Virus record (IMG/VR): IMGVR_UViG_3300029442_000005
Location: 1-61,078 of that record
Length of the DNA: 61,078 nt
Reading direction: 5' to 3' (one strand)
Source of the DNA: a virus
Taxonomy: Duplodnaviria; Caudoviricetes
Below, in pieces: positions 19,821 through 45,100 of the stretch. The position numbers were made by a program, and so were the translations under genes. The first letter of the stretch is position 1, and the number at the start of each line of letters is the position of its first letter. Below the pieces are notes generated by a model. That model searched no databases and was not told the DNA's origin. It saw nothing but the letters and a program-made list of their open reading frames with translations.

Positions 19821-20774
19821 TTACTTCTTTTTCTTACTTGGCTTTACTGCAGGCTTTGTAAGTGGTTTGTTAACTTTTTTTGATTCTAAAACACCTTTCT
19901 TGTTAGTGCCTTCAATTTCTTTATTTACTGCCTTCGGTGCTGGATTCAATTTAGATCCTGCTCCACCTTGTGCATTGCGAATTTTGTCAGTTGTTAAAGG
20001 CTTTGTAGTTGGCGCTGGGCGACCCTTTGCTTCTCCACCTTGTACCAAATTCTTTGCAGTTCCACCCATATCATTTTTCTTAGCAATAATACTCTTGGAA
20101 TTTACGCCTTCTTCTTTAGTTGATGCAATACCTTTACCACTCTTGTAAGGTTCACCAATCTTTTCGGTGTATTCACGGATAAAGCTTTCGTCTAGCTCTT
20201 CGTCGTCTTCATCAGATTCATCAGATTCATCAGATTCTAGTTCATCTTCATCAGATTCTAGTTCATCTTCATCAGATTCTAGTTCATCTTCATCAGATTC
20301 TAGTTCATCTTCATCAGCTTCTAGTTCGCCTTCTTCGCCTTCTTTTTCTGACATAATTTTTTCAAATTGTGCTTTTAAGTCAGCTAATGATATTTCTAGT
20401 TCTTCTGCTGAATCTTCTAGATTAACTACTCGATTTTCAATTGCTTCTTCTTCGCCTTCAACTGCATTGTCTTCTTCGTCTGCAAAATCGTCTGAAGCAA
20501 AATCATCTTCGTCAGAAGCAAATTCGTCTTCGTCATCGCTGACAAATTCGTCGTCAGCTTCTAATCCATCTTCATCGCCCATTTCAGGCTGTGCTTCTAA
20601 CATGTCAGGATTTACTTCTTCGTGTTCTACTTCATCGAGTGTGTTTTCTAAAGTATCAAAAGATTCGTAAATTTTTCTGCTCTTACTAACAACAATTTGA
20701 TGAAAAAGCTTTGCTGCATTCTTTTCATCACTTTCAATAATAAAATTAATTAATCGTTCAAAATTGCGTGACAT
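19821..20774 (-). CDS. Acidic prohead core/internal protein
   Basis: Very acidic centre and basic tail; first gene of the head operon, with TATAAATA (20805-20812) and AAGGAGA RBS. Confidence 0.65.
   Translation of the reverse strand: MSRNFERLINFIIESDEKNAAKLFHQIVVSKSRKIYESFDTLENTLDEVEHEEVNPDMLEAQPEMGDEDGLEADDEFVSDDEDEFASDEDDFASDDFADEEDNAVEGEEEAIENRVVNLEDSAEELEISLADLKAQFEKIMSEKEGEEGELEADEDELESDEDELESDEDELESDEDELESDESDESDEDDEELDESFIREYTEKIGEPYKSGKGIASTKEEGVNSKSIIAKKNDMGGTAKNLVQGGEAKGRPAPTTKPLTTDKIRNAQGGAGSKLNPAPKAVNKEIEGTNKKGVLESKKVNKPLTKPAVKPSKKKK
20209..20327 (-). repeat. Coding tandem repeats: 3x9 nt plus 4x21 nt (SDE / ELESDED)
   Basis: TCATCAGAT x3, then TCTAGTTCATCTTCATCAGAT x4 (last copy has one mismatch). 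Confidence 0.9.
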
Positions 20775-20922: not shown

Positions 20923-21933
20923 ATGAACTTATTTAAGAAAGCCCTAATTTGCGGTGATGGCCACTTTGGATTGAAGTCTAATAGTGACACCCATAATCAA
21001 GATTGTATCGATTTTATAAAATGGACAATTACAATGGCAAAAGAACAAGGTTGTGAAACTTGTATTTTTCTAGGTGACTATTTTAATAATAGGGCAACTA
21101 TCAATGTTAGAACTATGGACTATGCATTAAATGGTCTGGAACTATTAAGTGGAGCATTCGAAAAAGTTATCATGATACTTGGTAATCATGATATATTTTA
21201 TCGTGAATCACGAAATATTAATAGTGTTGCGTGGGCCCGTAATATTCCAAATATTCACATTATAAATAATATTGAAAATATTGGCAATTGTGTTTTAGTG
21301 CCTTGGTTAGTTGGCGACGAATTTAAACAACTATATAATCAACAAGGAAAGTATATGTTTGGGCACTTAGAATTACCAAACTTCTTAATGAATGCTATGG
21401 TGAGAATGCCAGATGTTGGTGAACTTACTATAGATAATTTCAATAAAGTAGAACAAGTATTTTCTGGCCACTTTCATATGCGACAAAAGCAAGCCAATAT
21501 AAATTATATTGGTAATTGGTTTCCACATAATTATGGCGATGCAGGAGATAACGCCAGAGGTATTACTATACTCGAATGGGGTAAAGAAATAGAGTATTTT
21601 TCGTGGGATAAAGCTCCTAGATATATTGTTCATAATATAAGCGATATTATTGAAGCTCCAGAAAAATATATGTTACCACGAAGTTATGTACGTCTAAAAC
21701 TAGATGTAGATTTATCATATGAAGAAGCTACATTTATTAAAGAAACATTTGTACAGAACTACAATTTGCGAGAAATTAATTTAATACCTATAAAGCAAGA
21801 TCTTCAGACCGATAGCGGAGAAATAGCGATACCTTTTGAAAATATAGATACTATGGTATATAATCAAATTTCAGCTATTAATAATGAATTCTATGACTCA
21901 CAAATTTTAACAAACATTTACTCAAATTTATAA
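20923..21933 (+). CDS. gp47: Recombination endonuclease, gp47 / Mre11-SbcD-like
   Basis: Metallophosphoesterase motifs GDGHFG, LGDYF, GNHD, FGHLE, SGHFH. Confidence 0.93.
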   Translation: MNLFKKALICGDGHFGLKSNSDTHNQDCIDFIKWTITMAKEQGCETCIFLGDYFNNRATINVRTMDYALNGLELLSGAFEKVIMILGNHDIFYRESRNINSVAWARNIPNIHIINNIENIGNCVLVPWLVGDEFKQLYNQQGKYMFGHLELPNFLMNAMVRMPDVGELTIDNFNKVEQVFSGHFHMRQKQANINYIGNWFPHNYGDAGDNARGITILEWGKEIEYFSWDKAPRYIVHNISDIIEAPEKYMLPRSYVRLKLDVDLSYEEATFIKETFVQNYNLREINLIPIKQDLQTDSGEIAIPFENIDTMVYNQISAINNEFYDSQILTNIYSNL

Positions 21934-21936
21934 ACT

Positions 21937-23691
21937 ATGATAAAACTTAACAGCGTTACCATTAAAAACTTTCTTTCTATCGGCAATAATACACAAAGTG
22001 TCCAACTTGATACAGATCAATTAACACTTGTATTAGGTGAAAATATTGATCTAGGAGGTGAAGATTCTGGAAATCGTAATGGCGTCGGTAAGTCTTCTCT
22101 ATTCCAAGCTATTTCTTATGCATTATTTGGACAATCATTATCTGGAATCAAAAAAGATAATCTTATAAACAAAACAAACGCTAAGAATATGTTAGTTACA
22201 TGCGATTTTTCAATTAATGGTAAAAAATATCGTATTGAGCGCGGACGAAAGCCTGGCATTTTAAAATTTTTAATTGATGAAGTTGAACAAGTAACTGTTG
22301 ATCAATCAATGGGCGACAGTGCTGAAACTCAACTTGTTATTAATAAACTTCTTGGTATGACTCATATTATGTTTAAGAATATTGTCTTACTTAATACATA
22401 TACTGAGCCATTTCTGAACATGTCAGTTGGTGATCAACGTATTATTATTGAACAGTTACTTGGGATTACGTTACTAACAGAAAAAGCTGACAAGTTACGT
22501 GAACAGATGAAAACTACTAAGGAACTTATCTGTAAAGAAGACATGAGAATCGTAGCAGTTCAAAATGCAAATAAACGATTGCAGGAACAAATCGATAGTA
22601 CTAAGCGTCGGCAAAAAATGTGGCTTGCAAAACACAAAGAAGATGAAGGCAATTTAACTATTGCAATAAATGAGTTATCAAATATAAACATAACAGAAGA
22701 GATTCAAAATCACAAAAATCAAGCACAATATAATAGCTATCTACAAGAAATTAAAGAGTTAAATAGTAATTTAGATCGAAAAAAGTCTGATTTACAAAAA
22801 GATTTAAAGTCTATTGAAAAACTTAAGAAAGAAATAAGTTCACTCAACGAAAATACGTGTTATGCTTGTGGTCAATCAGTTCATAATCATCAAGATCAAA
22901 TTGTTGATAAAGAACAATCATTAACTTCTGCCCAAACATCACTAACAAGTTTAAAAGCCGACATAGTTACATTTAATATGAAGATATTAAACTTAAAAGT
23001 TATTGAAAAACCTACTGTAACATGGTATGATAATGTCAACGATGCTATTGAACACAAAAGTAACTTAGAAAATTTAAAGCAGCAGTTAATGCTCAAACAG
23101 CAAGAAATTGACCCATATTCAGAACAAATAGAAGATATGAATATTAAAGGTTTAGAAGAGATAAAATTTGATACTATGAATGGATTGAAACGCATTCAAG
23201 ACCACGAAGATTTCTTATTAAAGCTGCTAACAAATAAAGATAGTTTTATCCGTAAACAAATTATTAATCAAAATTTAACATTTTTAAATTCTAGATTGAG
23301 CTACTACTTATATAAGTTAGGATTACCTCACACTGTTGTATTTCAAAATGACTTATCTGTCACTATTACTGAATTTGGCAGAGATCTAGATTGGGGTAAT
23401 CTATCAAGAGGTGAAGCAAGTAGAACTATTTTAAGTTTAAGTTTGAGTTTTAGGGATGTATGGGAAAGCCTATATCAACCAATTAATCTGTTGAGTTTAG
23501 ATGAGATGTTAGATAGTGGAATTGATACTGCTGGCGTTGAAAATGCCATGGGCATCTTAAAGCATATGTCTAGGGATAAAAAGAGAAGTGTTTGGTTAGT
23601 AAGTCATAGAGAAGAATTAGCAAGTAGAGTAAATAGTACTGTTGTAGTTACTAAAGAAAATGGGTTTTCACAATTTCACCAGGATAAATAA
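21937..23691 (+). CDS. gp46: Recombination ATPase, gp46 / Rad50-SbcC-like
   Basis: Walker A NGVGKS, coiled coil with CYAC zinc hook, LSRGE signature, LSLDE Walker B, VSH. Confidence 0.95.
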   Translation: MIKLNSVTIKNFLSIGNNTQSVQLDTDQLTLVLGENIDLGGEDSGNRNGVGKSSLFQAISYALFGQSLSGIKKDNLINKTNAKNMLVTCDFSINGKKYRIERGRKPGILKFLIDEVEQVTVDQSMGDSAETQLVINKLLGMTHIMFKNIVLLNTYTEPFLNMSVGDQRIIIEQLLGITLLTEKADKLREQMKTTKELICKEDMRIVAVQNANKRLQEQIDSTKRRQKMWLAKHKEDEGNLTIAINELSNINITEEIQNHKNQAQYNSYLQEIKELNSNLDRKKSDLQKDLKSIEKLKKEISSLNENTCYACGQSVHNHQDQIVDKEQSLTSAQTSLTSLKADIVTFNMKILNLKVIEKPTVTWYDNVNDAIEHKSNLENLKQQLMLKQQEIDPYSEQIEDMNIKGLEEIKFDTMNGLKRIQDHEDFLLKLLTNKDSFIRKQIINQNLTFLNSRLSYYLYKLGLPHTVVFQNDLSVTITEFGRDLDWGNLSRGEASRTILSLSLSFRDVWESLYQPINLLSLDEMLDSGIDTAGVENAMGILKHMSRDKKRSVWLVSHREELASRVNSTVVVTKENGFSQFHQDK

Positions 23692-23696
23692 TATGT

Positions 23697-24149
23697 ATGA
23701 ACACTGGACACTGGTCTTTCCCACATGACTTTAACCCTGACGAATGGTTTGGCTTTATATATAGAATAATTGAAATAGATACTGGTCGAGAATATATCGG
23801 AAAGAAACAGTTTCATCAACTTCTTAAAAAGAAAGTTAAGAATAGGGTTAACAAGAAACATATCAAGAAAGATTCAGACTGGATGACTTACACTAGCTCG
23901 TCAGAGCATATCAACAATGCAATTAAACTTAAGGGTATGAGTAACTATCAGTTTTTTATTGAATCACTACATAAAACTAGAGCTTCATTATACTATGCTG
24001 AGATAAATGTACAAATTCATGAAGATGTATTGCGTACTAGATTAGCAGATGGAGTTACACCAAAATATTTTAATAGATGTATTAGTTCTAATGTTAAATT
24101 TATTCCACCAATGGAAACTTTAGAAGAATCACAGATGAAAAGTAGTTGA
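23697..24149 (+). CDS. GIY-YIG nuclease (endonuclease II/Seg-like)
   Basis: FGFIYRII...GREYIGKKQF...SDWMTYTSSS; TAAATA at 23685-23690. Confidence 0.8.
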   Translation: MNTGHWSFPHDFNPDEWFGFIYRIIEIDTGREYIGKKQFHQLLKKKVKNRVNKKHIKKDSDWMTYTSSSEHINNAIKLKGMSNYQFFIESLHKTRASLYYAEINVQIHEDVLRTRLADGVTPKYFNRCISSNVKFIPPMETLEESQMKSS

Positions 24150-24175
24150 CACTTGTTACTGTTTCATGTTACTAT
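24146..24175 (+). promoter_or_regulatory. Sigma70-like promoter
   Basis: TTGACA (24146-24151), 18-nt spacer, TGn-TACTAT (24170-24175), 5 nt before ATG 24181. Confidence 0.65.
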
Positions 24176-24180
24176 TGTAT

Positions 24181-24621
24181 ATGAAGGAACGGAGAATACA
24201 GAAAGAAATTAAACAAACTGATTTCTCAAAAGTGCATTTTCTTCTTCCCACAAATAGATATCAAATCTTTCCATCGAATTCACAAAAGGATCAACTTTGT
24301 AAATTATTTGATGATAGCTGGATTGATGAAATTATTTGGCAGAGTTATAATTTACCAGAAAATTCACTTAATAGAATGCCAAAGTATGCAAAGTTAAACA
24401 AAGTATCTACGTATAGAAAAATTATACGTTCCACAAAACAAGTTAAATTTGAAGAAGAATATATACAGATTAAATCAAAAATTGGAAAGATCAAAATTTC
24501 ACTAAAAATTAAAAATTTATCAGAGTTCAACTATGTTGTTATTCATACTGCTAATAATGAGCAATGGTTCATTGATTTTGAAAATATCGCTGAACCAATT
24601 TGGGCAGATGAAAAAATCTAA
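24181..24621 (+). CDS. Hypothetical basic protein
   Basis: ORF track entry 24166-24621; start moved to 24181 because 24166 lies inside the promoter; no motif recognised. Confidence 0.6.
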   Translation: MKERRIQKEIKQTDFSKVHFLLPTNRYQIFPSNSQKDQLCKLFDDSWIDEIIWQSYNLPENSLNRMPKYAKLNKVSTYRKIIRSTKQVKFEEEYIQIKSKIGKIKISLKIKNLSEFNYVVIHTANNEQWFIDFENIAEPIWADEKI

Positions 24622-24649
24622 TGTGAATAATATCATGATAAATAATTTT

Positions 24650-25225
24650 AGGGAGGTAACTTTATAAAATATTAAAATAAACACATTTTTATTGGTTATA
24701 ATCACAATAAAAATGTAGTAACATATTACTTCATCCAGATAGCATTAACAGTGGTTGAATGCAGCTAATCTTAAAGAGGATCGAAAGCGGATGAGAAAGG
24801 GGTTGTTCATCTCGAACAACTGGCCATAGCTCGGGTTATCAAAAAGAGATAAGAACTCGAAGTAGATACGTATTGAACTGAGTGAAAACTTGGAAGAACT
24901 TACGGTTATGGTGTAGTGTGTAAAATGATTATATATAACTTAAAATTTGAATTCTTAATAGCAGGTCTATTAATTTTGGATTGAAGGTAGAATTACACAA
25001 ATAACGATGATGGAAATGAGAGAAAGCAACCATCACTTGACATAAGTTTTTTTGTTAACTAATATCAAGCACCGCTGGGCTAACTTTGTTAGCAAAAATT
25101 AGAATGAGTAGGTACAGGCCAACCGCCTACGATAAAATAGTTCTAAACAAAAATGAATCAAATTTGTTATTAAAAGTTATAACGTCGCTGATTTTTATTT
25201 TTTCTAGAAATAGGAAAAATATGAA
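24650..25225 (+). ncRNA. Candidate large structured non-coding RNA (~570 nt), family unassigned
   Basis: No ORF; GATAAATA at 24637-24644; more than 12 nested helices with + strand G-U pairs and GAAA tetraloops; boundaries approximate. Confidence 0.6.
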
Positions 25226-25266
25226 TTAAATATCATATTAAACAAATAGAAACATAATAAGAAAAG

Positions 25267-25673
25267 AACTTCGAGTGAAACGAAAATGAGTTTAGTACAA
25301 ATGAGTTGAGCGAATGCGAAACGAAGTTGTACTAAACGAAATGTGTTACTGCAAGAACGAAGTGAAGGCAGTAACTAACTGAGTGAGCATTGCGAACGAA
25401 AATAATAACAAATGAAAAACATAATAGAACAAATAAAATTAATGAATATTTCTAAAATAAATTTTGTGTGTACTAAAAAATTTGTGAGTTATATATTCGC
25501 TGCGCTCTGTCGTTGCACTCGCGTTGCTCGTCGCAACGATAATGGAACATCAGATTTTCTTCGCAGTCGTTCGTTACACTCACTCAGCTCTGAAAATCCA
25601 TTTCTTTCACTTCGTTTTTCTTTTCTATTCGCTTCGCTTCTGTAGCTGCATTCGCTGCGCTCATACAGCTACA
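25267..25673. other. Divergent array of G.A-mismatch mini-hairpins around an AT-rich spacer (candidate origin/ssDNA signal)
   Basis: Four GA-NN-loop-NN-GA elements on + (25273-25399) and six on - (25497-25662); several are enclosed by perfect 7-10 bp stems. Confidence 0.55.
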
Positions 25674-25739
25674 AAAGCAAAATGAATCTAAATTTTTGCG
25701 AATTAAAAACAAATTTTTTTATGAAATTGAGTTCCGAAT

Positions 25740-25916
25740 TTAAAAATATGGAAGTTGTGTTTTACTTGTTATTTCGAGATTGCTTTTTACTATATCATTG
25801 AGAATTTCTCTGTCTTTTTCACTTAGCTGATACATTTCAGTCAATGAAATACCGCCACGTAAAAACCAACATAATGTATAAATTTCTTTCTTAATTACTT
25901 TAATGTTGTGCTCCAT
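25740..25916 (-). CDS. Small baseplate/tail assembly protein (gp51-like), probably the -1 frameshift extension of the upstream gene
   Basis: 58-aa ORF below the track cutoff: MEHNIKVIKKEIYTLCWFLRGGISLTEMYQLSEKDREILNDIVKSNLEITSKTQLPYF; frame stays open back to the T8 run at 25972-25979. Confidence 0.7.
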   Translation of the reverse strand: MEHNIKVIKKEIYTLCWFLRGGISLTEMYQLSEKDREILNDIVKSNLEITSKTQLPYF

Positions 25917-25957
25917 ATTATCAAGTAACTTCTGTGTTTCTTCAGAAGTATTCGATG

Positions 25958-26791
25958 CTAGAAGCTTAGAGAAAAAAAACTTGTATACTCTAGACTAAAT
26001 TCTGTTTTAAATTCTTCCCTACAACTTTCACACATAAGTTCTAACTTATTACATTTAGTTGCTTCTTTGAGTTTAGCAGTATGCATTTTGAGTTTATCAC
26101 CAGTTGACTTATCAGCATTAACTACAAACTCATGTATGAAATCTCTTTCAGTTACTAATTGACCCTTAACAGCAATATTATTAATAGTATTGATAATAAA
26201 TAACACTTCTAATTGCTGTAACTCGTTTATAATAGTATTTGTAATATGCTCTTTTTCATCTGGATCTTTAACATCATTTATCTGTTTAGATTGTTTCTGA
26301 TATTGAAATAATTTTAACTGATGATCACATTGTTGTTTAAAAGAGCACGGTTTGAAAGTAAATGATAAATCTCCAATTACAAGTTTCTCATTCCATAAAT
26401 TTGAATTAAATTTTGAAAGATGATCTTTCAAATCTATATCATAATGACTAACTTCTTTACATTTTCTACATGTTGCTTCTATGGACATTTTTTCGCCCAT
26501 ACTTGCAATCCGTATAGCTATAAGTATTGATTCTATATCAATGCTTGGAATACCCCACGCATCATTAATACCTACAATACAATTTTGTACTAAACTAACT
26601 GTAGCTTCTCCACTCATTAATGCTTCAGGAGTCTGTAACAAAATTTCATCAGCAGCCGTCATACTCATTACTGGTAATTCACCAGATATTGGAAGACTAA
26701 GACTTCCATCGGGCCACCATCTACCATTACTTGGTAGTCTTAGATATAATGATGGTTGTCTAAAATATGCTTTAAGTGGATTGTCTGCCAT
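25958..26791 (-). CDS. gp26: Baseplate hub assembly protein, gp26-like
   Basis: NPLKAYFRQP..LPSNG, MTAADEILL, DIESILIAIRIASMGE, two CxxC pairs, ends SFF. Confidence 0.75.
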   Translation of the reverse strand: MADNPLKAYFRQPSLYLRLPSNGRWWPDGSLSLPISGELPVMSMTAADEILLQTPEALMSGEATVSLVQNCIVGINDAWGIPSIDIESILIAIRIASMGEKMSIEATCRKCKEVSHYDIDLKDHLSKFNSNLWNEKLVIGDLSFTFKPCSFKQQCDHQLKLFQYQKQSKQINDVKDPDEKEHITNTIINELQQLEVLFIINTINNIAVKGQLVTERDFIHEFVVNADKSTGDKLKMHTAKLKEATKCNKLELMCESCREEFKTEFSLEYTSFFSLSF

Positions 26792-26794
26792 AGA

Positions 26795-27661
26795 TTACTC
26801 GAAAAAGGTTGATAAGTTAAAGTTGATTGGCACTTCCCAACTCTTAGGAGCTCCAATTAATTCTTGTTCAGGTGTAGCATATACTGTTTGAGTTTTAAAT
26901 GTTAGCTTTTCTTTTTGTGCATCAACGTGAGCTTGAATAGATCTAAAATATTCTAAATCAATCATTGCTATAAATTGCTTGATTTCATTTGAATTTTCTG
27001 TTGTAAATTCATCAGTTGATACTTTTCTAATACTATCACCAATCATATTAACTGATATGTTACCTAAGCTTTTCATTTGAGTATCTAATTCATTTATTTT
27101 TTCGTCGTTAGATGAAGAGCTGGTTGTTATATCAGATGCTAATTGTTGCTGTTTTATAATTTGCTTTGTAGCCAAGAATAGTGTTCGTAAATTGATAGGC
27201 TTAATAAGTAAATGTAATGTATTACCAGACTCGTTAGATATGTTAAGTTCTTCATCCCAAATAGCTTCTGCATTTGGAAAATCTTTAACAAGCTGTTCTA
27301 TACTTAAATTTATATCTTGAAACTTATCTGTACCAGGGATAGAAACATTATACTTAATTTGGTCACCTTGACTTGCACGTCTAATACTCATCATAATGAC
27401 ATCTAAGTCAACAATTGGAATTTGTTCAGGATCTTTTAAAGCAGGTACACAACTCTTAATAAGGTCGTATGTTGCTTGACTACTTAATAATATTTCACTT
27501 GTTTTGAATCTTGTGTCATCAGAAGCCGTCATTGCATATATTTCTACTTCACCATTAGTAGAACTAATTGTATTTTTTGGATACCATTTTCCTCTACTTG
27601 GTAATAATATAGTAAATTTTGGTTTTCTGAAAAATTGTTGTAATGGGTTGGTTTTATTCAT
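26795..27661 (-). CDS. gp26-like paralog lacking CxxC motifs
   Basis: NPLQQFFRKP..LPSRG, MTASDD, DLDVIMMSIRRASQGD align with the downstream gene. Confidence 0.7.
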   Translation of the reverse strand: MNKTNPLQQFFRKPKFTILLPSRGKWYPKNTISSTNGEVEIYAMTASDDTRFKTSEILLSSQATYDLIKSCVPALKDPEQIPIVDLDVIMMSIRRASQGDQIKYNVSIPGTDKFQDINLSIEQLVKDFPNAEAIWDEELNISNESGNTLHLLIKPINLRTLFLATKQIIKQQQLASDITTSSSSNDEKINELDTQMKSLGNISVNMIGDSIRKVSTDEFTTENSNEIKQFIAMIDLEYFRSIQAHVDAQKEKLTFKTQTVYATPEQELIGAPKSWEVPINFNLSTFFE

Positions 27662-27693
27662 GATAAATATATAATGTACTCGTAGTATTTATA
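27662..27693. promoter_or_regulatory. Face-to-face late promoters for divergent genes
   Basis: GATAAATA on + (27662-27669) and TATAAATA on - (27686-27693). Confidence 0.6.
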
Positions 27694-31763: not shown

Positions 31764-34700
31764 ATGTCCTGGCACAAATATTTTAAATTAGCGAACTCGG
31801 GTACGATGAGCCCTATTAGTGGTGGTCAAAATAAAGGTTCTGGATCAATGAAATACAACAATTTTTCCAGTATTTTGCCAGAGGTATATTTGGGTCACCC
31901 AAATCGTATTGATCGTTATACCTCATTAAATAATATGGTAACAGATGCAGAAGTAGGTGCAGCTCTAGATATTATAAGTGAATTTTGTACACAAAATAGT
32001 GAACAAAACGATACACCATTTGATATATCTTTTAAAGATAAACCAACAGAAACTGAAATTTCAATAATTAAGAAACAGCTCGATGCTTGGTGCAGTTTAA
32101 ATCAATTTGACAGACGACTTTTCAAAATTTTTAGAAATGTATTAAAATACGGAGATCAAGTTTTCATACGTGACCCAGAAACATTTAAGTTATTTTGGGT
32201 TGATATGATTGATGTTATTAAAATTATTGTTAATGAAAGTGAAGGTAAAGTACCTGAACAGTACATTATTAGAAATATAAATCCTAATTTTGAAAATTTA
32301 TCAGTTAATCAAGTAACAGCAGAAACACTTTATAATTCTACTAATATTGCAGCAGGTGGATCAGTTAAATATTCAACACCAACAGACTCGCATACTGTTA
32401 GTAGATTTTCACATGGTCTTAAAGAAATAGCAATTGAAGCTCAACATATAGTACATTTAAGCTTAACAGAAGGGTTAGATACTTGTTGGCCATTTGGTAC
32501 TAGCATTTTAGAAAATATTTACAAAGTCTTTAAACAAAAAGAACTCATTGAAGATGCAATTATTATTTATAGAATACAAAGGGCACCAGAACGTAGAATT
32601 TTTAAAATAGATGTTGGTGATATGCCAAGTCATTTAGCGATGGCATTCGTTGAACGTATTAAAAATGAAATTCATCAACGCAGAATTCCATCTGCTAGTG
32701 GTGGTGGCTGTTTTGCAATGGATACAAAAATTCCACTATTAGATGGAAGAAAACCTACATTACTAGAATTAAGTAAAGATTTTGAACAAGGAAAAGAAAA
32801 TTGGATTTATTCTTGTAATCCTGTTACAGGTGAAGCTGTTCCTGGAAAAATTACTTGGGCTGGTGTTACTCAACAATCGGCTAAAGTTATAAAAGTTACA
32901 TTAGATAATGGTGAATCAATAATTTGTACACCCGAACATAAATTTCCAATTATTGGAAAAGGTAAAGTAGAAGCTAAAGATATAGAACCATTGGTTGATA
33001 GCTTAATTAGCTTTAATACTAGATTGCATTCTATTAATGAAGAAAAAGAAAATAATTCACATAATCCACAATATCAACAAGTATTTGATCATTCAACTAA
33101 ATCTTGGAAATTTACTCATCGGATAGTAGCTAACTATTTTAAAGAAAGAAGCACTGAACAAAACTTAGTATTTTTACAAAAGTTTGAAAATGAACAGAAG
33201 AGAGTTATACACCATAAAGACTTTAATAAGTATAATAATAGTCCAGATAATTTGGTATTTATGTATGGTGCTGATCATTTTATGCTACATTCAGATAGTA
33301 GCAATTCATTTTGGAAAAACCTTACACCTGAGCAGAAAAATGAAATTGCAGAAAGAAGAAAATTCACAATTTCACAATGGTCAGAAGAGAAGAAAAATGA
33401 AACTGCAACTAAAATAGGTAATGCAAACAAAAATAGATTAAATAAGTTAAAATTCGAAGAACCAGAAAAATATCAGACACTAAAAAATATATGGTTACAA
33501 AATATAAAACTCGAATCTAAAAGTCCTTGGAGGAATCAAAAGTTAGAATGGTCAGATAGTTTATTTGAAATAGTGAAAAATACTGTATTAGAAAATGAAT
33601 CAAATTGGCTCGATACCTGTATATTATTAAGTCAAAATGATGAATTCATGAAAAAGTATGTTGAACTAAACCAACAAAAATCTAAAACAATTTCACATTT
33701 ACAATTAGAAGTATTTTCTTCTGGAACATTAAGAAATCTACTTAAAACCAATGGCTTCTCCACTTGGAGAAAATTCAAAAAGTCATTAAATCAACCTATT
33801 AGAAAGAAAACTTTGTCTCTTAATTGGGATAATGTATTGTTATCAGAAGTTGTAAAAGAAACAAAAAATTGTAATGGAAATAAGAAAAAAATTATTGAAA
33901 AATTAAATTCAAATTTTGTTTTTATGGCTCATTATGCAAAAATTAATGAACATTTGAAATCTGGTTGTCGAGGAAATGTTAATTATTTTGCACCGACAAC
34001 ATTGTTAACTTGTATCAAATCCAATGGATATAAACATTGGACAGACTTTAAACAAAAATTAGATCAATACAATCATAAAGTTCTGTCCATTGAATGGTTA
34101 GACGAACCAATTGAAGTTGGCACAATTACAGTTGATGGACATGAAGAATTACATAATTTTCATACATTTGCAATTGAGCAAGGTATATATACCTTCAACT
34201 CATCATTCGTAGATTCTTCATATCAAACATTAGGCGTAAATGAAGATTATTATTTTCCAATTGGTAGAGACGGCAAAGGTTCAAGTGTTGAAACATTACC
34301 TGGTGGTCAAAATTTAAATGATATTGCTGATTTGAAATTTTTCACTAATAAAATGTTTAGAGGACTAAGAATTCCAAGTAGTTATCTACCTACTACATCT
34401 GAAGATTCAGCAGCAGTTCATTCAGATGGCAAGGTTGGAACAGCATTAATACAAGAGCATAGATTTAATCAATATTGTAAACGTCTTCAATTATTAGTAT
34501 GTAGTTCATTAAATACAGAATTTAAGACTTTCTTAAAATGGCGTGGATTAAATATTGACAGTGGAATGTTTGATATTAAGTTTAACGAGCCACAAAATTT
34601 TGCTAGTTATAGACAAAGTGAACTTGATTCTGCAAAGATTCAGGGATTTACACAACTTGATCAATTCTCTTACTTATCTAAACAGTTTTTACTTGAACGT

Positions 34701-34952
34701 TATCTTGGCTTAACTGAAGACGAAATTCTAAAAAATAGTCAGCTGTGGCGTAATGAAAATCCTAAAAAAGATGAAGACACATACGAATCTGACACTAACT
34801 TACGAAATGTAGGAGTTAGTGCTGGTGGAATTGATACTGATTTAGAAGGATTAGAACCTGAATCAGAGGAAGGCGGAATGGGAGAGGAAGGCGAAATGGG
34901 AGCAACTCCAGGGGCTGAAGAAGCTGCACCTCCGCCCGTAACAGCACCATAG
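31764..34952 (+). CDS. gp20: Portal vertex protein (gp20-like) containing an intein
   Basis: FGTSILENIYKVFKQKELIEDAIIIYRIQRAPERRIFKIDVG, EDYYFP..GSSVETLPGGQNL, GLRIPSSYL. Confidence 0.93.
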   Translation: MSWHKYFKLANSGTMSPISGGQNKGSGSMKYNNFSSILPEVYLGHPNRIDRYTSLNNMVTDAEVGAALDIISEFCTQNSEQNDTPFDISFKDKPTETEISIIKKQLDAWCSLNQFDRRLFKIFRNVLKYGDQVFIRDPETFKLFWVDMIDVIKIIVNESEGKVPEQYIIRNINPNFENLSVNQVTAETLYNSTNIAAGGSVKYSTPTDSHTVSRFSHGLKEIAIEAQHIVHLSLTEGLDTCWPFGTSILENIYKVFKQKELIEDAIIIYRIQRAPERRIFKIDVGDMPSHLAMAFVERIKNEIHQRRIPSASGGGCFAMDTKIPLLDGRKPTLLELSKDFEQGKENWIYSCNPVTGEAVPGKITWAGVTQQSAKVIKVTLDNGESIICTPEHKFPIIGKGKVEAKDIEPLVDSLISFNTRLHSINEEKENNSHNPQYQQVFDHSTKSWKFTHRIVANYFKERSTEQNLVFLQKFENEQKRVIHHKDFNKYNNSPDNLVFMYGADHFMLHSDSSNSFWKNLTPEQKNEIAERRKFTISQWSEEKKNETATKIGNANKNRLNKLKFEEPEKYQTLKNIWLQNIKLESKSPWRNQKLEWSDSLFEIVKNTVLENESNWLDTCILLSQNDEFMKKYVELNQQKSKTISHLQLEVFSSGTLRNLLKTNGFSTWRKFKKSLNQPIRKKTLSLNWDNVLLSEVVKETKNCNGNKKKIIEKLNSNFVFMAHYAKINEHLKSGCRGNVNYFAPTTLLTCIKSNGYKHWTDFKQKLDQYNHKVLSIEWLDEPIEVGTITVDGHEELHNFHTFAIEQGIYTFNSSFVDSSYQTLGVNEDYYFPIGRDGKGSSVETLPGGQNLNDIADLKFFTNKMFRGLRIPSSYLPTTSEDSAAVHSDGKVGTALIQEHRFNQYCKRLQLLVCSSLNTEFKTFLKWRGLNIDSGMFDIKFNEPQNFASYRQSELDSAKIQGFTQLDQFSYLSKQFLLERYLGLTEDEILKNSQLWRNENPKKDEDTYESDTNLRNVGVSAGGIDTDLEGLEPESEEGGMGEEGEMGATPGAEEAAPPPVTAP
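32709..34199 (+). mobile_element. Intein (497 aa) with HNH-type endonuclease
   Basis: GGG|CFAMDTKIPLLDG (block A), ICTPEHKF (block B), VIHHKDFNKYNNSPDNL (HNH), VGTITVDG..HNFHTFAIEQGIYTFN|S (blocks F/G). Confidence 0.92.
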
Positions 34953-39191: not shown

Positions 39192-42100
39192 ATGGCTATT
39201 AATAGAACTATAGATTTTTTACCTGAATATTTTAAATCAATACCAAATCAACGATTTCTGAGTAGCACGTTAGATAGACTCATTAGCGATCCAGTATTAC
39301 GAAGATTTGATGGATATGTTGGTAGAAAATTTTTAGACGGATCTAAATTAGAAGGTAATTACATTTCAGAATTGAATCAATTACGTGCTAATTATCAACT
39401 TGAACCAGCATTTATAAATCGCAACGATCAATCTAATATTACTTCATTGAGCACAAAAACGAATTCAGTTTCTAGTGTAATTAGTTTTATTGATGTATTA
39501 AATAGTGTGGCGAGCAAAGGCGGAAGTATTAATAGTTGGAATAGACTATTAAGTTCTGATTGTTATAACTTCAATGGATTTGTTAACCTTGATAAGTTGA
39601 CTAATTATTATAATTATGTTTGGATTCCAGAACCAAAAACAATAAATAACGAAGTTGTTGATAATAATCCTTGGTTTAGAAATCCTATTGAAATTAGCAA
39701 CACATTCATTTCAGCAGCCGCTGACTATTCGATTCTTCGTAGTAACAACGGACTATCAGTCGTTGGGTCAAATAATCTAACTGGTATTAATCCAGAAATT
39801 ATTTTAGCAAGAGGTGGAAAATATAACTTTAATATTTTACCACAAGAATCTAGACCATCCACAAGATTTCCAAAATTAATTCAACAAGGTAACTTAGATA
39901 GCTTAGTTACTGCATCAGCTGATATTCAATTCTTTCCAAACAATAATACTAGTGGTAAATTCTCAAATGGAAGTTATTTAACTATTCCTAAAAATAGTGA
40001 CTTTAATTTTAAATCAACTGCATTTACTGTTGAATTTTATGTATGGGTTGACGGAACAAATGTTGAAGATAATGTATTAGTTGGACAATGGCAAGGAGAC
40101 GATTTATCCAAGAGTAGTTGGGCAATAGTTAGAACAACAACTGTTATCAATTCAACATTTATTAATACATTTAAATTTGTTTGGATTGATAATGAAACTG
40201 GTCAAAGTAAGAGCATTACATTTGCAGGGAATGTAGTTCCTGGACTTGCAGTTCATCATATTGCTGTTTCTAGATTTGGAAATAGCATTAAATTATATAT
40301 TGATGGAATATTAATTCCTAGTCAACAAATCAATGGTGAAAGTATCATTGGAAATATTGCTAGTTCTATTCTTCCAGTAACTGTTGGTGCTGATGCAATT
40401 GGTAATATGTCATTTGTTGGATATGTTGAAGATCTAAGAATTTCAACTAAGGTTGCAAGATATACTAATGTAAACTTTACTCCTCCAGAAGCTATAACAA
40501 CAGTTGATGAAAATACAGTACTATTGATTAATTTCGATTCTACACCTGGAGATACTAATTTTATTGATAATGTTGCTCCATCAATAAGTAGAATGTGGAT
40601 TCAAACACATGCTGGAATATCTGGAGCATTACCATATGATCCATCACTCCCAACAAGAGACATTTATGGAGTAACAAATAACGGAACATCAACAGGTACT
40701 ATTACATTTTCAGTTCCAACATTATTAGCTGAAAATCAATATAGAGATCTTGGTCGCACTGGTGATGAATATTATGATAATGTTGACTTGGCAACAGATC
40801 TACAATTTGATCAAATTAATTCAACTGTGTATGATACATTTGTTACATCAGCAGCAATAGGCGAAGATACAAATATATCTGGACATCGTGGGGGAATTGA
40901 TGGAATTGCAGATTTAGAAGATAAAACATTGATCTTTGCCAAAGAACAAACCATTGGTTGGAATAACTATATCCCTTATGAAAATGCTGGAAATGAACTA
41001 TATCCTTATGATGAAGAATTTCCTATTCCAGCAAATATGCGCTATGGTATTTGGCGTATAAACATCATTGATGGAGTAATTAAACTTCTATTTATTAAAG
41101 AAATCGCAGGCAACTATAGGGTTTCAATAAAATACGGAAACATTTATAGAAATGCTGATTTTTTCAAAATTACTGATACATCACCATTGCTAAAGATTCC
41201 GCAATTGAGCAGCAACTATGCCACATTATATTTGCAAGATGATCAAAATTCAAGCAATGTTCTTCCACTTGAAATACTATTAACAGATATTCCAACATTG
41301 AATATTGATGAAGAAATTGTTGGAAAACAGCATTTTACCAGTGCAAATGGAATTGAATTAATTAATGGTTTGCGAATACGATTCAACAATTTTGCTATTC
41401 CAGAAAAGTATACTGATACTACAAAGAGTTATATTGTAGAAGGCGTTGGTCAAGCAATTGTATTAGTACCGTATGAAGAATTAACAAAGTCTCAAGATCC
41501 AGACTATATAACTATTAATCGTTCTAGTCTAGATAGAAATGCGTGGTCAAGGACAAACAGATGGTTTAATAAACAAGTTGTTGATAAGTCCATTGAATAT
41601 CTAACTCAGCAAGGTTTCCCTGTTACATATCCTGCTCTACAAAGAGCTGTTAGACCTATAATTGAATTTAAGTCTGGATTAAGATTGTTTAATTATGGTA
41701 TAATTGGACTAGGTCAAGTAAGTATCATTGACAACTATATCAATGATGCTCTTAGTAATATAAATGGCAGATCAATAACTGATGTTAATGCTTTAACATT
41801 TGACAACTATGTTGTACAGGCAGGCGATCTTATAGTCTTTAATAAAGATAGATCAGAAGCAGTCAGAAAAACAATTTATAAAATTAATGTTGTTGACGTT
41901 TCAGACAGTTTAGGTGCTCATTCAAAATCACCAGTTATTGCAGCTTCAATTGGAAACATTGATTTATCTATTCCTCCGCCAGCAACAATAGATGGTATAT
42001 CATTGACTGTTAATGATAGAATATTAGTATGGCAACAAACTAATCCGACTGAAAATGGAATCTATGTTTTTTCATCAAGTTCATTAACAAGATCATTGGA

Positions 42101-45100
42101 TGCAAATGAAGGTGTAATGTTTAATGAAAGCTTTAATGTATTTGTATTGAATGGATCTATTAATGGAAACAGATGGTTTAATTATACTATTACACAACCA
42201 GACAAAACAGTAACACTCAGCATATCACCAATTATCTTTATTCAGACTGAAAATATTGGACCAACAGTTGAATTGGTTCCTTATGAAATCGCTACAGTTA
42301 ACAATTGTATATCAGCTGCTGAAGGTAATAGCAAAGGAACTCATTGGTTTTATAGTGAATTAGATCGCAAATGGATTACAAGTTTGCAAGTAAAAACTCA
42401 AGTAAATCAATCACCATTATTTGATATTTTTGATTATACTGGAGCGAGTTATAGCACTTATTTGGGATCAGATTTTACTGGATCTAAATTATTTGATTAT
42501 GCCAGATCTACTAATGTAGTCAATGATCCAGTGTTGGGATTTGGTGTAGTATACAGAAATATATTTAATTTAGGTGATGTTACTTTCAATAATTATTTTG
42601 AAACAGATACATTTTCTTATTTAAGTGATCCATCATTATCCACACAGACTATTATTAATATTAGCAAAGGAACAGCTAGAAGAGTTGATCCAATTTCTAC
42701 TGTAGAAGATATATATTCTTGTTGGAAACAAATTCAATCTAATTCAGAACTATATCAAAATCTAGAATTAACTGGAGAGAGTATTATTTCTAGTAATTAT
42801 GTATTTGTTGCAACAGCTAAATTCATTGTTAAAAAAACCGATAATGTTTTCAAAACAAAAATTTATGTTGATGGTGCACAAGTAAACAGTAATCTAATTA
42901 TCAATGAACAATTAGGTGATAAAATTAGAATTACAATTGATAATAGTGTAGTTATTAACGCAACTTCAATAGTTCTATTCAAATTACAATTAACAACATT
43001 ACTGAATAATGCTTGGTATGATGTTCCAATGGGTTATGAATTAAATCCATTTAATGTACGACCACAAACATTCACTTTAAGTGACTTAGAACAACATACA
43101 TCTGAAATGATAAGTAATTCAGGTCAGATTGTATCACCTTCAGTTGATGGTCTAGATAATATAGATTATCAGAACAATGTTGGCTTAATACTATTACATG
43201 ATGGATTCAGCTTGTTACCATCGTTATTACTTGCATCCGAACAGTTTGATATTGATGTTGCTATAAAAACAGCAGCTACTGATTATGAAAGTCTAAAATT
43301 ACAATTTATACAAACAGCTGATCAAGTTGAAGCAATTGAAACAATGACTGTAAAAGATGCTGTTGATAAAATCTTTGAAGTATTAGTTAGCAATAAGAAT
43401 AATAATATGCCTTGGTACAATAGCGATATGGTACCAACAGGCGGAATATTACAACAATACGTAATCGACGATTTATTCCAGGTCACATATAAAACTCACA
43501 CACAATATAATCTATCTATTGCTAGTAATAAATCATTGTTAGTTTATCTAAATGATACTCTATTAATTAAAAATGTTGAATATTTTGTAAGTAGTGATTC
43601 ATCAGAAATTACTTTAATTAAACAATTACACTTAGATGACGTATTAGATATATACAGAGTAGATAATACAGATGGTTGCTTTGTTCCCTCTACTCCAGCA
43701 AAATTAGGTTTGGCTCAGAAATTTGTACCACAAATTTATTTAGATGATACATATCAAACTCCAACAACAGTATTACAAGGGCATGATGGTAGTATTACAA
43801 CAGTTTATGGTGATTATAAAGACAAACTATTATTAGAATTTGAAATCAGAATTTATAATAATATTAAAACCAACAATCAACTATGGGCTGATGTAATTAA
43901 TACTAAAGTTACTCCAAGCGGCAAATTTAGAAGTACATTATATTCATCCTCTGAACAATCTAATATTTACAGAAAAGTATTTTATGAATGGGTTGCTGAA
44001 AACAAAGTAAACTTCGGAACTACATTTTTTGATGAAAACAATAGTTTTACTTGGAACTATAGCACAAGTACAGACAAATTAACTAAGACTAATTTAAAGG
44101 GATATTGGAGAGGAATATACAAAGATTTAATTGATACTGACAGACCAAATTTTTCACCGTGGGAGGCACTTGGGATTTCAGAAAAGCCATTATGGTGGGA
44201 TGCTACTTATGGACCAGCCCCATACACTGGTGGAAATTTGGTATTATGGAATGATATCAGAGATGGGATAGTTAGAGATCCAGAAGGAAATTATTTTGGT
44301 TCACTTGGACCACGCGAAAACATCAATTATTCTATTTTAGATTTTATTCCAGTAAGTGAAAATGGTAATTTACTTACACCAACTGATATGAATGTAATGT
44401 ATACATTTGATACACAAAATATTAAAAATATTTTTATATTTGGTGATCATGGTCCAGCAGAAACTGCTTGGCGAAGATCGAGTACTTTTGCATTTTCACA
44501 ATTACGTTCCAAGATTTTACAAAATCCACAGTTTATGCTCGGATCACTCTGGGATCTTGATAATTACAAGCCAGAATTTTATACATCGCCATTGAAATTT
44601 AATACAACTGACATTCCTAATATTACAGATTTGAGACTTAATGGAGATGGAGAAAATAGAGTTCATAGTATTATAAATTATCTAATAGAATCGCTAAAGT
44701 CTCAAGGAAAAACATTACAAGTCATTAAAGATGCAATTACAAATGCTGAAGTTAACTTAACTTATAGTATTGGAGGATTTGTTGACGAAAGTAATATTCA
44801 AGTTTATGCAGAACAAAATAGTCCACAAACACTTGGTAATTCAGTTAAGATTCCAACTGAAAATTATGAATTATTTTTAAGTCAAAATACTTCTGTAGGT
44901 GTTGTTAACTACAGTGGCGTTATAATAAGTAGAACAGTTAATGGTGGTTATAGAGTAAATGGATATGATAAACAGAATCCATTCTTTACAGCATATCCTT
45001 TTGATCCTAGTGGAAAGAAATCTTCATTTACTATTGGAAACAGTACCTTTACAATTTATCGTGATTTTTTCAGTACACCAATATTGATTCCTTACAGTTA

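Follow-up and report, generated by a model that had tools for sequence, protein, structure and literature searches.

What could account for two mirrored arrays of G.A-mismatch hairpins that face each other across an AT-rich gap in a phage genome? The arrays lie at positions 25,267 to 25,673 of the virus record IMGVR_UViG_3300029442_000005 (Duplodnaviria; Caudoviricetes), of which the whole stretch analysed, 61,078 nucleotides, is hereafter called the window. This 61-kb fragment of an uncultured virus record, estimated to be 17% complete, is, judging from its gene content, derived from a T4-like jumbo phage. A sequence-only reading of this DNA had proposed that the hairpins fold on one strand per side when the AT core melts, as expected for a bidirectional origin, a primase or helicase loading site or a packaging signal. 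Our comparative analysis leads us to favour, with a confidence slightly above even, the interpretation in which two convergent transcripts each end in G.A hairpins that serve as RNA modules, over that of a replication origin. The arrays are composed of the following units.

25273-25283, plus strand: unit h1, GA-GT-GAA-AC-GA, GAGTGAAACGA, at the position of the 3′ hairpin of the family described below (M8).
25303-25324 (whole unit 25290-25337), plus strand: unit h2, GA-GTT-GA-GC-GAAT-GC-GA-AAC-GA, GAGTTGAGCGAATGCGAAACGA, with an outer stem of 11 bp (25290-25300 / 25327-25337).
25355-25365 (whole unit 25345-25375), plus strand: unit h3, GA-AC-GAA-GT-GA, GAACGAAGTGA, with the outer stem GTTACTGC/GCAGTAAC (25345-25352 / 25368-25375).
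25381-25399, plus strand: unit h4, GA-GT-GA-GC-ATT-GC-GA-AC-GA, GAGTGAGCATTGCGAACGA, with two G.A steps and an inverted-repeat partner at 25567-25587 (pair I4).
25400-25495, no strand: AT-rich spacer between the arms, 15% G+C, flanked by arms of 40% and 47% G+C.
25497-25507, minus strand: unit h10′, GA-GC-GCA-GC-GA.
25517-25531 (whole unit 25510-25539), minus strand: unit h9′, GTTGC / GCAAC around AC-GA-GC-AAC-GC-GA-GT.
25567-25585, minus strand: unit h8′, GA-GT-GA-GT-GTA-AC-GA-AC-GA, the counterpart of h4 (I4, 81%).
25607-25615, minus strand: unit h7′, AC-GAA-GT-GA, the counterpart of h3 (I24, 93% over 14 nt), its 5′ G.A step degenerate (AA).
25622-25692, minus strand: long hairpin of ~20 bp including 4 G.U pairs (inverted repeat I1), starting ~50 nt past the stop codon of the small gene o58; GC-GAA-GC-GA at 25629-25637 (minus) is its 3′ side.
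25652-25662, minus strand: unit h5′, GA-GC-GCA-GC-GA, capping the long hairpin.

Direct inspection of the sequence recovered every one of the ten elements on which the sequence-only reading was built. The strand split that it described also holds, with 4/4 strict matches on the plus strand in the left arm and 5/5 on the minus strand in the right arm, and the AT-rich spacer, put at ~95 nt, measures 96 nt. The tetranucleotide CGAA occurs 8 times in 25281-25397 (117 nt, plus strand), compared with 0.25-0.27 expected per 140 nt, and TTCG occurs 7 times in 25496-25651; the next-richest CGAA cluster of the window holds 3. A loose form of the hairpin grammar matched 14 times in 407 nt, against 1.7 ± 1.4 (maximum 10) in 500 dinucleotide shuffles. 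Because a cluster scan with this loose grammar was swamped by coding repeats (for example at 20219-20657), the grammar was tightened to GA(GC/AC/GT)N3-4(GC/GT/AC)GA, a strict form drawn up after the data had been seen. The strict grammar matches 9 times in 25273-25662 and 6 times in the remaining 60.7 kb, while window and relatives together (1.03 Mb) average 0.16 matches per kb; the corresponding Poisson P of ~5e-17 is too optimistic, the grammar being post hoc. One source of imitation is a 317-aa open reading frame (ORF) without assigned family (19821-20774, minus strand), whose ~21-nt tandem repeats (GAATCTGATGAACTAGA...), especially at 20219-20309, mimic the loose G.A grammar and produce the second TTCG cluster of the window. 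Ten contig sets carry the stretch, all of them DNA and from 4 freshwater studies. Contigs from three studies match it without any difference, although some may be the source of the window DNA, and four contigs compared at the stretch revealed no variants, joints or ends. Two contigs cross the whole stretch, which is therefore not an assembly artefact.

Under RNA folding parameters, the strand that bears the G.A units is, in each arm, the one that folds better. The right arm reaches −64.8 kcal/mol (z −5.4) on the minus strand versus −44.5 kcal/mol (z −1.8) on the plus strand, a gain of 20 kcal/mol that is partly due to the ~20-bp stem with four G.U pairs, and the left arm reaches −33.1 on the plus strand versus −26.4 on the minus strand. 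DNA parameters, which contain no sheared G.A terms, give little strand asymmetry (−18.8 vs −16.3 and −27.9 vs −24.3).

The origin of the unit became apparent from relatives. A search with the gp46-like protein returned 80 loci (45-57% identity) sharing the order gp47, gp46, a variable insert, and converging o58 and baseplate-hub genes. Comparison of the non-coding parts of these loci first disclosed a shared core, and three nhmmer rounds extended it to a non-coding element of ~340 nt, which runs on the same strand as gp46 and is present in 54/80 syntenic loci. A 16-base core pattern was found in at least 119 further viral contigs, 114 of the 119 matches listed having the element, and in total the element occurs in 168/200 sources examined, window included (at least 119 pattern contigs among the matches listed). 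It ends with a tail made of an A-rich linker and two hairpins, the first a G.A hairpin and the second a plain palindromic hairpin, and, among the 46 loci having both element and o58, its end falls no more than 143 nt from the o58 stop codon in 30 and no more than 24 nt from it in 17. The window produced no Rfam 15 match at gathering score, and L001, L122 and L169 gave chance-level Rfam matches only, with E values up to 10. Among 50,697 GenBank phage records, the 1.1-kb gap containing the arrays yielded only a chance 52-nt match and a family member yielded none. No description of the element turned up in the literature searched, and we claim no absence beyond it.

The core of this element has the properties of an RNA. 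We aligned 58 distinct sequences and evaluated the core against 500 shuffles and against controls in which pairing partners were slid. The whole core structure is paired in 91.8% of cells compared with 76.9% in shuffles, none of which (0/500) attains the observed pairing or covariation, and sliding the partners by 1-3 columns lowers pairing to 34-55%. A pseudoknot is formed by a five-pair long-range helix between CCGTTGN and the loop of hairpin GGGGTACCGGNCAACCGCCTCC; 99.0% of its cells are paired, and its variable pair is AU in 24, UA in 20, GC in 12 and CG in 2 of the 58 sequences. Hairpin H4 contains a U.G pair in 58/58 sequences and a G.U at another pair in 30/58, and the opposite strand would turn the invariant U.G into an A.C mismatch. 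Wobble pairs specific to one strand, together with a pseudoknot, are expected of a transcribed RNA gene and not of an origin. The compensatory helices, the pseudoknot and the G.U pairs that fit one strand only show the strand of this upstream RNA: on comparative evidence, the element behaves as a structured RNA encoded on the gp46 strand. RNAalifold and an automatic helix scan, applied to a MAFFT alignment of the whole element that is poor across subclades, recovered just 4 short helices.

A pattern search in relatives, which the sequence-only reading had suggested, located the G.A unit as the 3′ hairpin of their element. In the family, this hairpin consists of an outer stem of 5-7 pairs, U, GA, two pairs, a loop of 3-4 nt, two pairs, GA, (A) and the outer stem again. 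Over 23 distinct relatives, 98.9% of its cells are paired versus 70.7% in shuffles, a value reached by 0/500 of them, and its covariation score is 0.742 versus 0.187 in shuffles; an alignment fitted to a model leans toward that model, and the slid controls (≤0.15) are the fairer comparison. The inner pair (positions 3 and 9) is G-C in 15 and A-U in 8 sequences, with no mismatch. The fixed GA/GA steps with compensating 2-3-bp stems that had been noticed in the window thus correspond, according to the covariation in relatives, to a real and selected fold. A strict unit is found on the RNA strand in 118/139 distinct complete tails, with inner stems GC/GC in 83, AC/GT in 28 and GT/AC in 7. All 118 loops end in A, and 67 of the 76 four-base loops are of the form G..A, mostly GNRA, with GATA, GCAA, GTAA, GACA and GAAA as common versions. 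Both G.A steps are swapped for Watson-Crick pairs in L190, L193 and L196, and the inner stem is extended in L122 and L168.

This variation also bears on the idea that the words GAGCGAAGCGA / GAACGAAGTGA are duplex DNA iterons in inverted orientation, recognized by a phage protein, which we find hardly credible. Similar 11-12-nt words are indeed inverted around an AT-rich core. However, base-pair covariation links positions 3 and 9, the loop is 3 or 4 nt long, whole stems are inserted in L122 and L168, the G.A steps are replaceable by Watson-Crick pairs and the spacing of units within the arrays is irregular. Such covariation and such variable loop and stem lengths contradict iterons because a fixed duplex site would not tolerate them.

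The unit is confined to a single locus. A hairpin model (R1), which is too short for significance, ranked 25348-25372 (plus strand) first of 27 matches over both strands of the window (16.3 bits, E 0.26) and 25646-25668 (minus strand) second (15.7 bits, E 0.39), and matches elsewhere in the window did not rise above noise. In five relatives' records, complete or near-complete (289-374 kb), there were 0-1 matches each at E ≤ 0.1, located at the element, which indicates that the unit is not a repeat scattered over the genome and not a promoter or terminator of general use. An array of the window type is absent from all other family members examined, and in the 114 further loci, among the matches listed, at most 3 strict matches occur near the element, unrelated ones included. 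In the window, h1 is followed by three further plus-strand units, of which two possess new, strong outer stems, and then by five to six units on the minus strand. The pattern ATGAGNNNAGCGAATGC, tried as a probe of viral contigs, gave at least 117 single matches, the richest clusters being coding repeats or unrelated DNA, and was rejected. One side observation is that the same double-step hairpin, CTGAGTGAGC-GTA-GCGAACGA, exists in two contigs having no protein in common with the window (L003 1038-1058 and L004 9910-9930, plus strand), where it lies in non-coding sequence that separates two minus-strand genes and is followed by a GTTGC-TGTAA-GCAAC hairpin; the G.A module may therefore occur outside the element family.

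The window itself contains a copy of the element, placed as follows.

24940-25400, plus strand, approximate bounds: probable window copy of the element, comprising core, middle hairpin, A-rich linker and four G.A hairpins.
25003-25131, plus strand: core, with a hairpin (GATGATGG...CCATCA), the variable hairpin, CCGCTGG, and GGTACAGGCCAACCGCCTAC with the pseudoknot.
25198-25219, plus strand: middle hairpin TTTTTTCTA-GAAA-TAGGAAAAA, with a GNRA loop and one U.G pair, corresponding to the middle hairpin of the family.

The core matches positions 63-182 of the family profile with an E value of 4.8e-11 (nhmmer) and has one mismatch in the pseudoknot. A pairwise match of window 25164-25286 to L183 (E 4.3e-4) places the middle hairpin, the A-rich linker and h1.

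Together, these data support a model in which each module would be a short helix that contains a tandem G.A/A.G step once or twice and has a GNRA or GNA loop at its tip. A single G.A hairpin and a plain palindromic hairpin would form the 3′ end of a ~340-nt pseudoknotted non-coding RNA, encoded downstream of gp46 at a convergent junction in uncultured freshwater T4-like jumbo phages. The window phage would have multiplied the module, so that four copies tail the RNA on the plus strand, and a diverged inverted copy of the tail, with five to six units, would serve on the minus strand as the 3′ untranslated end of the baseplate-hub/o58 transcript. Both converging transcripts would thus end in G.A hairpins on either side of the AT-rich gap, and the modules may offer one RNA-binding factor a repeated handle and/or form a barrier by which the two 3′ ends are defined and protected. 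This interpretation is consistent with the continuity of the plus-strand units with the RNA-like element, with the GNRA loops, with the location of the two best hairpin-model matches of the window in the arrays, one per strand, with the retention of the G.A cores in counterpart units whose unrelated outer stems still pair, with the genes that run into each arm from its own side, those of the minus strand behind a late-promoter motif, and with the better RNA fold of each arm on its G.A strand. The comparisons show the fold, its conservation, the strand of the upstream RNA and the restriction to one locus; transcription of both strands across the arms we infer.

The genes that converge on the site are the following.

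20923-21933, plus strand: gp47-like nuclease (phosphoesterase), part of a plus-strand convergent set spanning 20923-24621.
21937-23691, plus strand: gp46-like SMC ATPase, part of the same set.
23697-24149, plus strand: SegE-like GIY-YIG endonuclease, part of the same set.
Within 20923-24621, plus strand: a 151-aa ORF, part of the same set.
25740-25916, minus strand: o58, a conserved 58-aa gene, the final gene of the converging late operon.
25958-27661, minus strand: two baseplate-hub genes (T4_baseplate, phrog_150).
Near 27686, minus strand: T4-type late promoter motif TATAAATA, just upstream of the baseplate-hub genes.

The earlier proposal that transcription converges here is borne out by this layout, in which gp47/gp46/segE on the plus strand meet baseplate-hub/o58 on the minus strand across a non-coding gap of 1.1 kb (24622-25740) devoid of credible ORFs. 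The transcript of the late operon, whose final gene is o58, would enter the right arm. By tblastn, o58 was found in 47/80 relatives' loci, each time on the strand opposite to gp46, and it matched no Pfam or PHROGs family.

Several observations weigh against the interpretation as RNA modules. No intrinsic (rho-independent) terminator site was found in 24400-26100, and no RNA run is among the sequencing runs listed with the stretch. The stems of the 3′ hairpin contain no G.U pair in 183 cells, which is unusual for an RNA helix; this is the pattern expected of a DNA hairpin or of a hairpin folding on both strands. The GC/GC cores equal those of mini-hairpin DNA (GCGNAGC, GCGNNAGC). A second unit, carried by the other strand and 20-60 nt upstream of the one that belongs to the RNA, is present in 23/139 relatives' tails. 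It varies independently of the RNA's unit, so that the two do not pair with each other, and to include it the converging transcript would have to read ~80-100 nt through the other gene. Where inserted genes part o58 from the element, no unit follows o58, which argues that the unit is tied to the junction and not to o58. The family profile stops short of the 3′ half of the window copy, even with filters off, and this half was placed by the weak pairwise match to L183 and by eye. Finally, the role as a handle or 3′ barrier is one that we propose.

Several of these points suit the alternative that the units are hyperstable single-stranded DNA (ssDNA) mini-hairpins, formed on one strand per side once the AT core melts and acting as a bidirectional origin or as primase/helicase loading sites, like G4 oric, RSF1010 ssiA/ssiB or the N4 hairpin promoters. 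We consider it unlikely. PMC13037366 locates the mini-hairpin DNA motif at the G4 priming site, RSF1010 ssiA and the N4 early promoters, and reports a melting temperature (Tm) of 76.5 C for d(GCGAAAGC) compared with 39 C for r(GCGAAAGC). The resemblance to the motif as described there is close: the core words are the same, two G-C pairs close a GNA/GNNA loop with a sheared G.A, the signal is strand-specific, and RSF1010 carries two signals on opposite strands. Cores such as GCGAAGC, GCGCAGC, GCGAAAGC and GCGCAAGC fit the motif GCGNAGC/GCGNNAGC, inner stems are GC/GC in 83/118 family units and in 5/9 strict units of the window, units exist on both strands in the window as well as in 23/139 relatives' tails, their stems lack G.U pairs, and the spacer between the arms has only 15% G+C.

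Nevertheless, the plus-strand units continue from a pseudoknotted element that keeps its U.G pair on that very strand, and the relatives have no AT-rich core, their element ending ≤24 nt from the next stop codon in 17/46 loci. The opposite-strand unit of relatives lies to the left of the plus unit in 24 distinct sequences, the reverse of the order in the window, which misfits a fixed priming geometry. Units of the present family also differ from mini-hairpin DNA in adding a tandem G.A step and an outer stem, in terminating a long element that has a pseudoknot and U.G pairs, and in having other inner stems in 35/118 cases (28 + 7), without the G-C outer pair of the mini-hairpin inner stem; two GC/GC loops of the window (ATT, AAC) depart from GNA, and one of them ends in T. 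DNA folding parameters give little strand asymmetry, sheared G.A terms being absent from them. The window revealed no context of primase, Rep or virion RNA polymerase. For N4-type hairpin promoters, which go with a phage-encoded virion RNA polymerase of the T7-like family, Pfam detected no polymerase domain in the 5402-aa ORF or in two further large ORFs, the window representing 17% of the genome. Cumulative GC skew, proposed earlier as a check, follows gene strand in the window, as it does in a relative with a complete record of 338 kb (G001), a weak test in T4-like phages; it has no V shape, and in the 338-kb relative the element lies at 153 kb, with the nearest local minimum ~7 kb away at a strand switch. 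We observed neither the skew of an origin site nor a fixed orientation of the units. The folding of the unit postulated by the sequence-only reading is upheld by covariation in relatives; its assignment to an ssDNA origin, primase or helicase loading site or packaging signal did not gain support.

T4 oriF/oriG R-loops and ColE1 RNA II are transcript-primed origins, and T4 oriF adjoins baseplate genes 25/26. By analogy, the structured RNA might be an origin transcript of the ColE1 RNA II / T4 oriF R-loop kind that ends in the AT core, with mini-hairpins on the displaced strands excluding single-stranded DNA-binding protein (SSB) and loading primase and helicase, in effect an RNA-primed, hairpin-marked bidirectional origin. 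We assign a low probability to this combination. An RNA ending at an AT-rich stretch in a T4-like phage resembles such origins, but the relatives have no AT-rich stretch after the RNA, and there is no sequence relation.

The relationship between the two arms themselves raises two further alternatives. The arms form a diverged inverted repeat centred at ~25483-25486, with pairs I4, I17 and I24 being 81-93% complementary; a global alignment of the two arms was uninformative. They could accordingly be parts of one large imperfect inverted repeat in which a readthrough transcript from either side pairs left with right into a long imperfect duplex that halts or processes both converging transcripts, as a bidirectional terminator or RNase III site. 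We think this improbable. The symmetry of the arms, the convergent junction and the perfect palindromic hairpin that closes the relatives' element next to the converging gene all agree with it. On the other hand, complementarity across the arms is limited to the G.A cores: counterparts have unrelated outer stems that still pair locally (h2 TTTAGTACAA/TTGTACTAAA versus h5′ GTAGCTG/CAGCTAC), and on the plus strand the right arm folds as RNA no better than shuffles (z −1.8). Pairing between arms would also leave unexplained why G.A steps are retained over Watson-Crick steps and why covariation within the unit exists in relatives that have a single arm.

Alternatively, only the plus-strand tail would be functional and the minus-strand array would be a decaying inverted duplication without a function of its own, a possibility to which we likewise give little weight. 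The lack of similar arrays in the other family members, the loss of the 5′ GA of h7′ and the window loops ATT, GAAT and AAC, which fall outside GNA/GNRA, point in this direction. Against decay, five strict minus-strand units persist even though their flanks have diverged beyond recognition, the new outer stems pair well, including the ~20-bp stem whose 4 G.U pairs work on the minus strand only, and a minus-strand unit is independently present in relatives.

The RNA modules can also be compared with known structured RNAs and repeats. GNRA-capped helices with tandem sheared G.A pairs are found in rRNA, group I/II introns and RNase P. The units share with them C-G-closed GNRA loops, tandem 5′-GA/3′-AG steps and residence in a pseudoknotted RNA with other GNRA hairpins, but the element has no sequence or Rfam relation to them. 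REP/BIME sequences of enterobacteria exist as hundreds of dispersed copies and are thought to protect mRNA 3′ ends. Similarly, the units are short imperfect palindromes of alternating orientation in the 3′ gap of converging genes, whereas they occupy one locus, with 0-1 matches in five relatives' records, and are not dispersed. CsrB/RsmZ are multi-hairpin decoy or sponge RNAs. Like these, and like the phage pseudo-ToxI repeat expansion (PMC3475682), the window exhibits repeated conserved-loop hairpins in a non-coding RNA and a lineage-specific repeat expansion in a phage; unlike them, it has no GGA motif, the hairpin spacing is irregular, and most family members have a single unit.

Additional features were noted around the element. 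A near-perfect sigma-70 promoter word (TTGACA, 17 nt, TAATAT) lies at 25037-25065 of the window (plus strand), at the variable hairpin of the family, and may be there by chance or mark an internal start. In the middle domain (alignment A1, columns ~375-450), near-identical boxes ACTCGGATGATGC and ATCTGGATGATAC, which recall C/D-box or kink-turn words, flank a covarying hairpin and are followed by GTATGAC. Repeats of TAGGCA(C/A), in 2-4 copies, are located 20-120 nt 5′ of the element (for example in L263, L212 and L207), with ~22-nt spacing in L263; TAGGCA was rejected as a general promoter word, as it is not enriched genome-wide in the window or in G001. A SegE-like GIY-YIG gene often stands directly 5′ of the element, ~35-40 nt away in four loci (genes at L178 5154-5594, L186 5618-6058, L166 9806-10231 and L172 3968-4393; 23697-24149 in the window), and the conserved core could be the homing target of this endonuclease. 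Between gp46 and the element, the two closest gp46-like relatives encode a RusA-like Holliday-junction resolvase (L122 4807-5337, plus strand).

Beyond the junction, the closest cultured phages are of the RaK2 and PA5oct type, with a hub protein identity of just 28-29%, and no close relative of the window phage was found, its hub protein matching nothing in the viral or metagenome contigs searched. The late-promoter word TATAAATA occurs 13 times in the window compared with ~1.9 expected, both strands combined, at sites that include 13183, 15069 and 55540 (plus) and 20805, 20855 and 27686 (minus). Owing to this excess, and because the sites are often just 5′ of ORF starts, the phage probably uses T4-type late transcription. 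The gp20-type portal gene (31764-34952, plus strand, 1062 aa) appears to be interrupted by an intein, as its middle part carries an intein splicing domain and matches HNH weakly. The 5402-aa ORF (39192-55400, plus strand), with Laminin_G_3 / concanavalin-like (lectin), YHYH and weak CBM5/12 matches, is probably a giant fibre or adhesin.

The hairpin unit itself, a GNRA/GNA hairpin with tandem G.A pairs, is a known structural motif. What is new is the pseudoknotted ~340-nt element, present at a fixed place in at least 167 uncultured freshwater jumbo phage contigs, without an Rfam family and found in none of 50,697 GenBank phage records. Also new are the ability of its terminal hairpin to occur on both DNA strands of the same junction and the expansion of this hairpin into two mirrored arrays in one lineage. 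One and the same short sequence forms a hyperstable structure in DNA and a standard motif in RNA. Should the DNA reading be true, T4-like phages would have their first example of a hairpin-marked origin. Should the modules instead be the handles of an RNA-binding factor, this factor could be sought with the natural series of copy numbers (1, 1+1, 4+5) that the locus provides.

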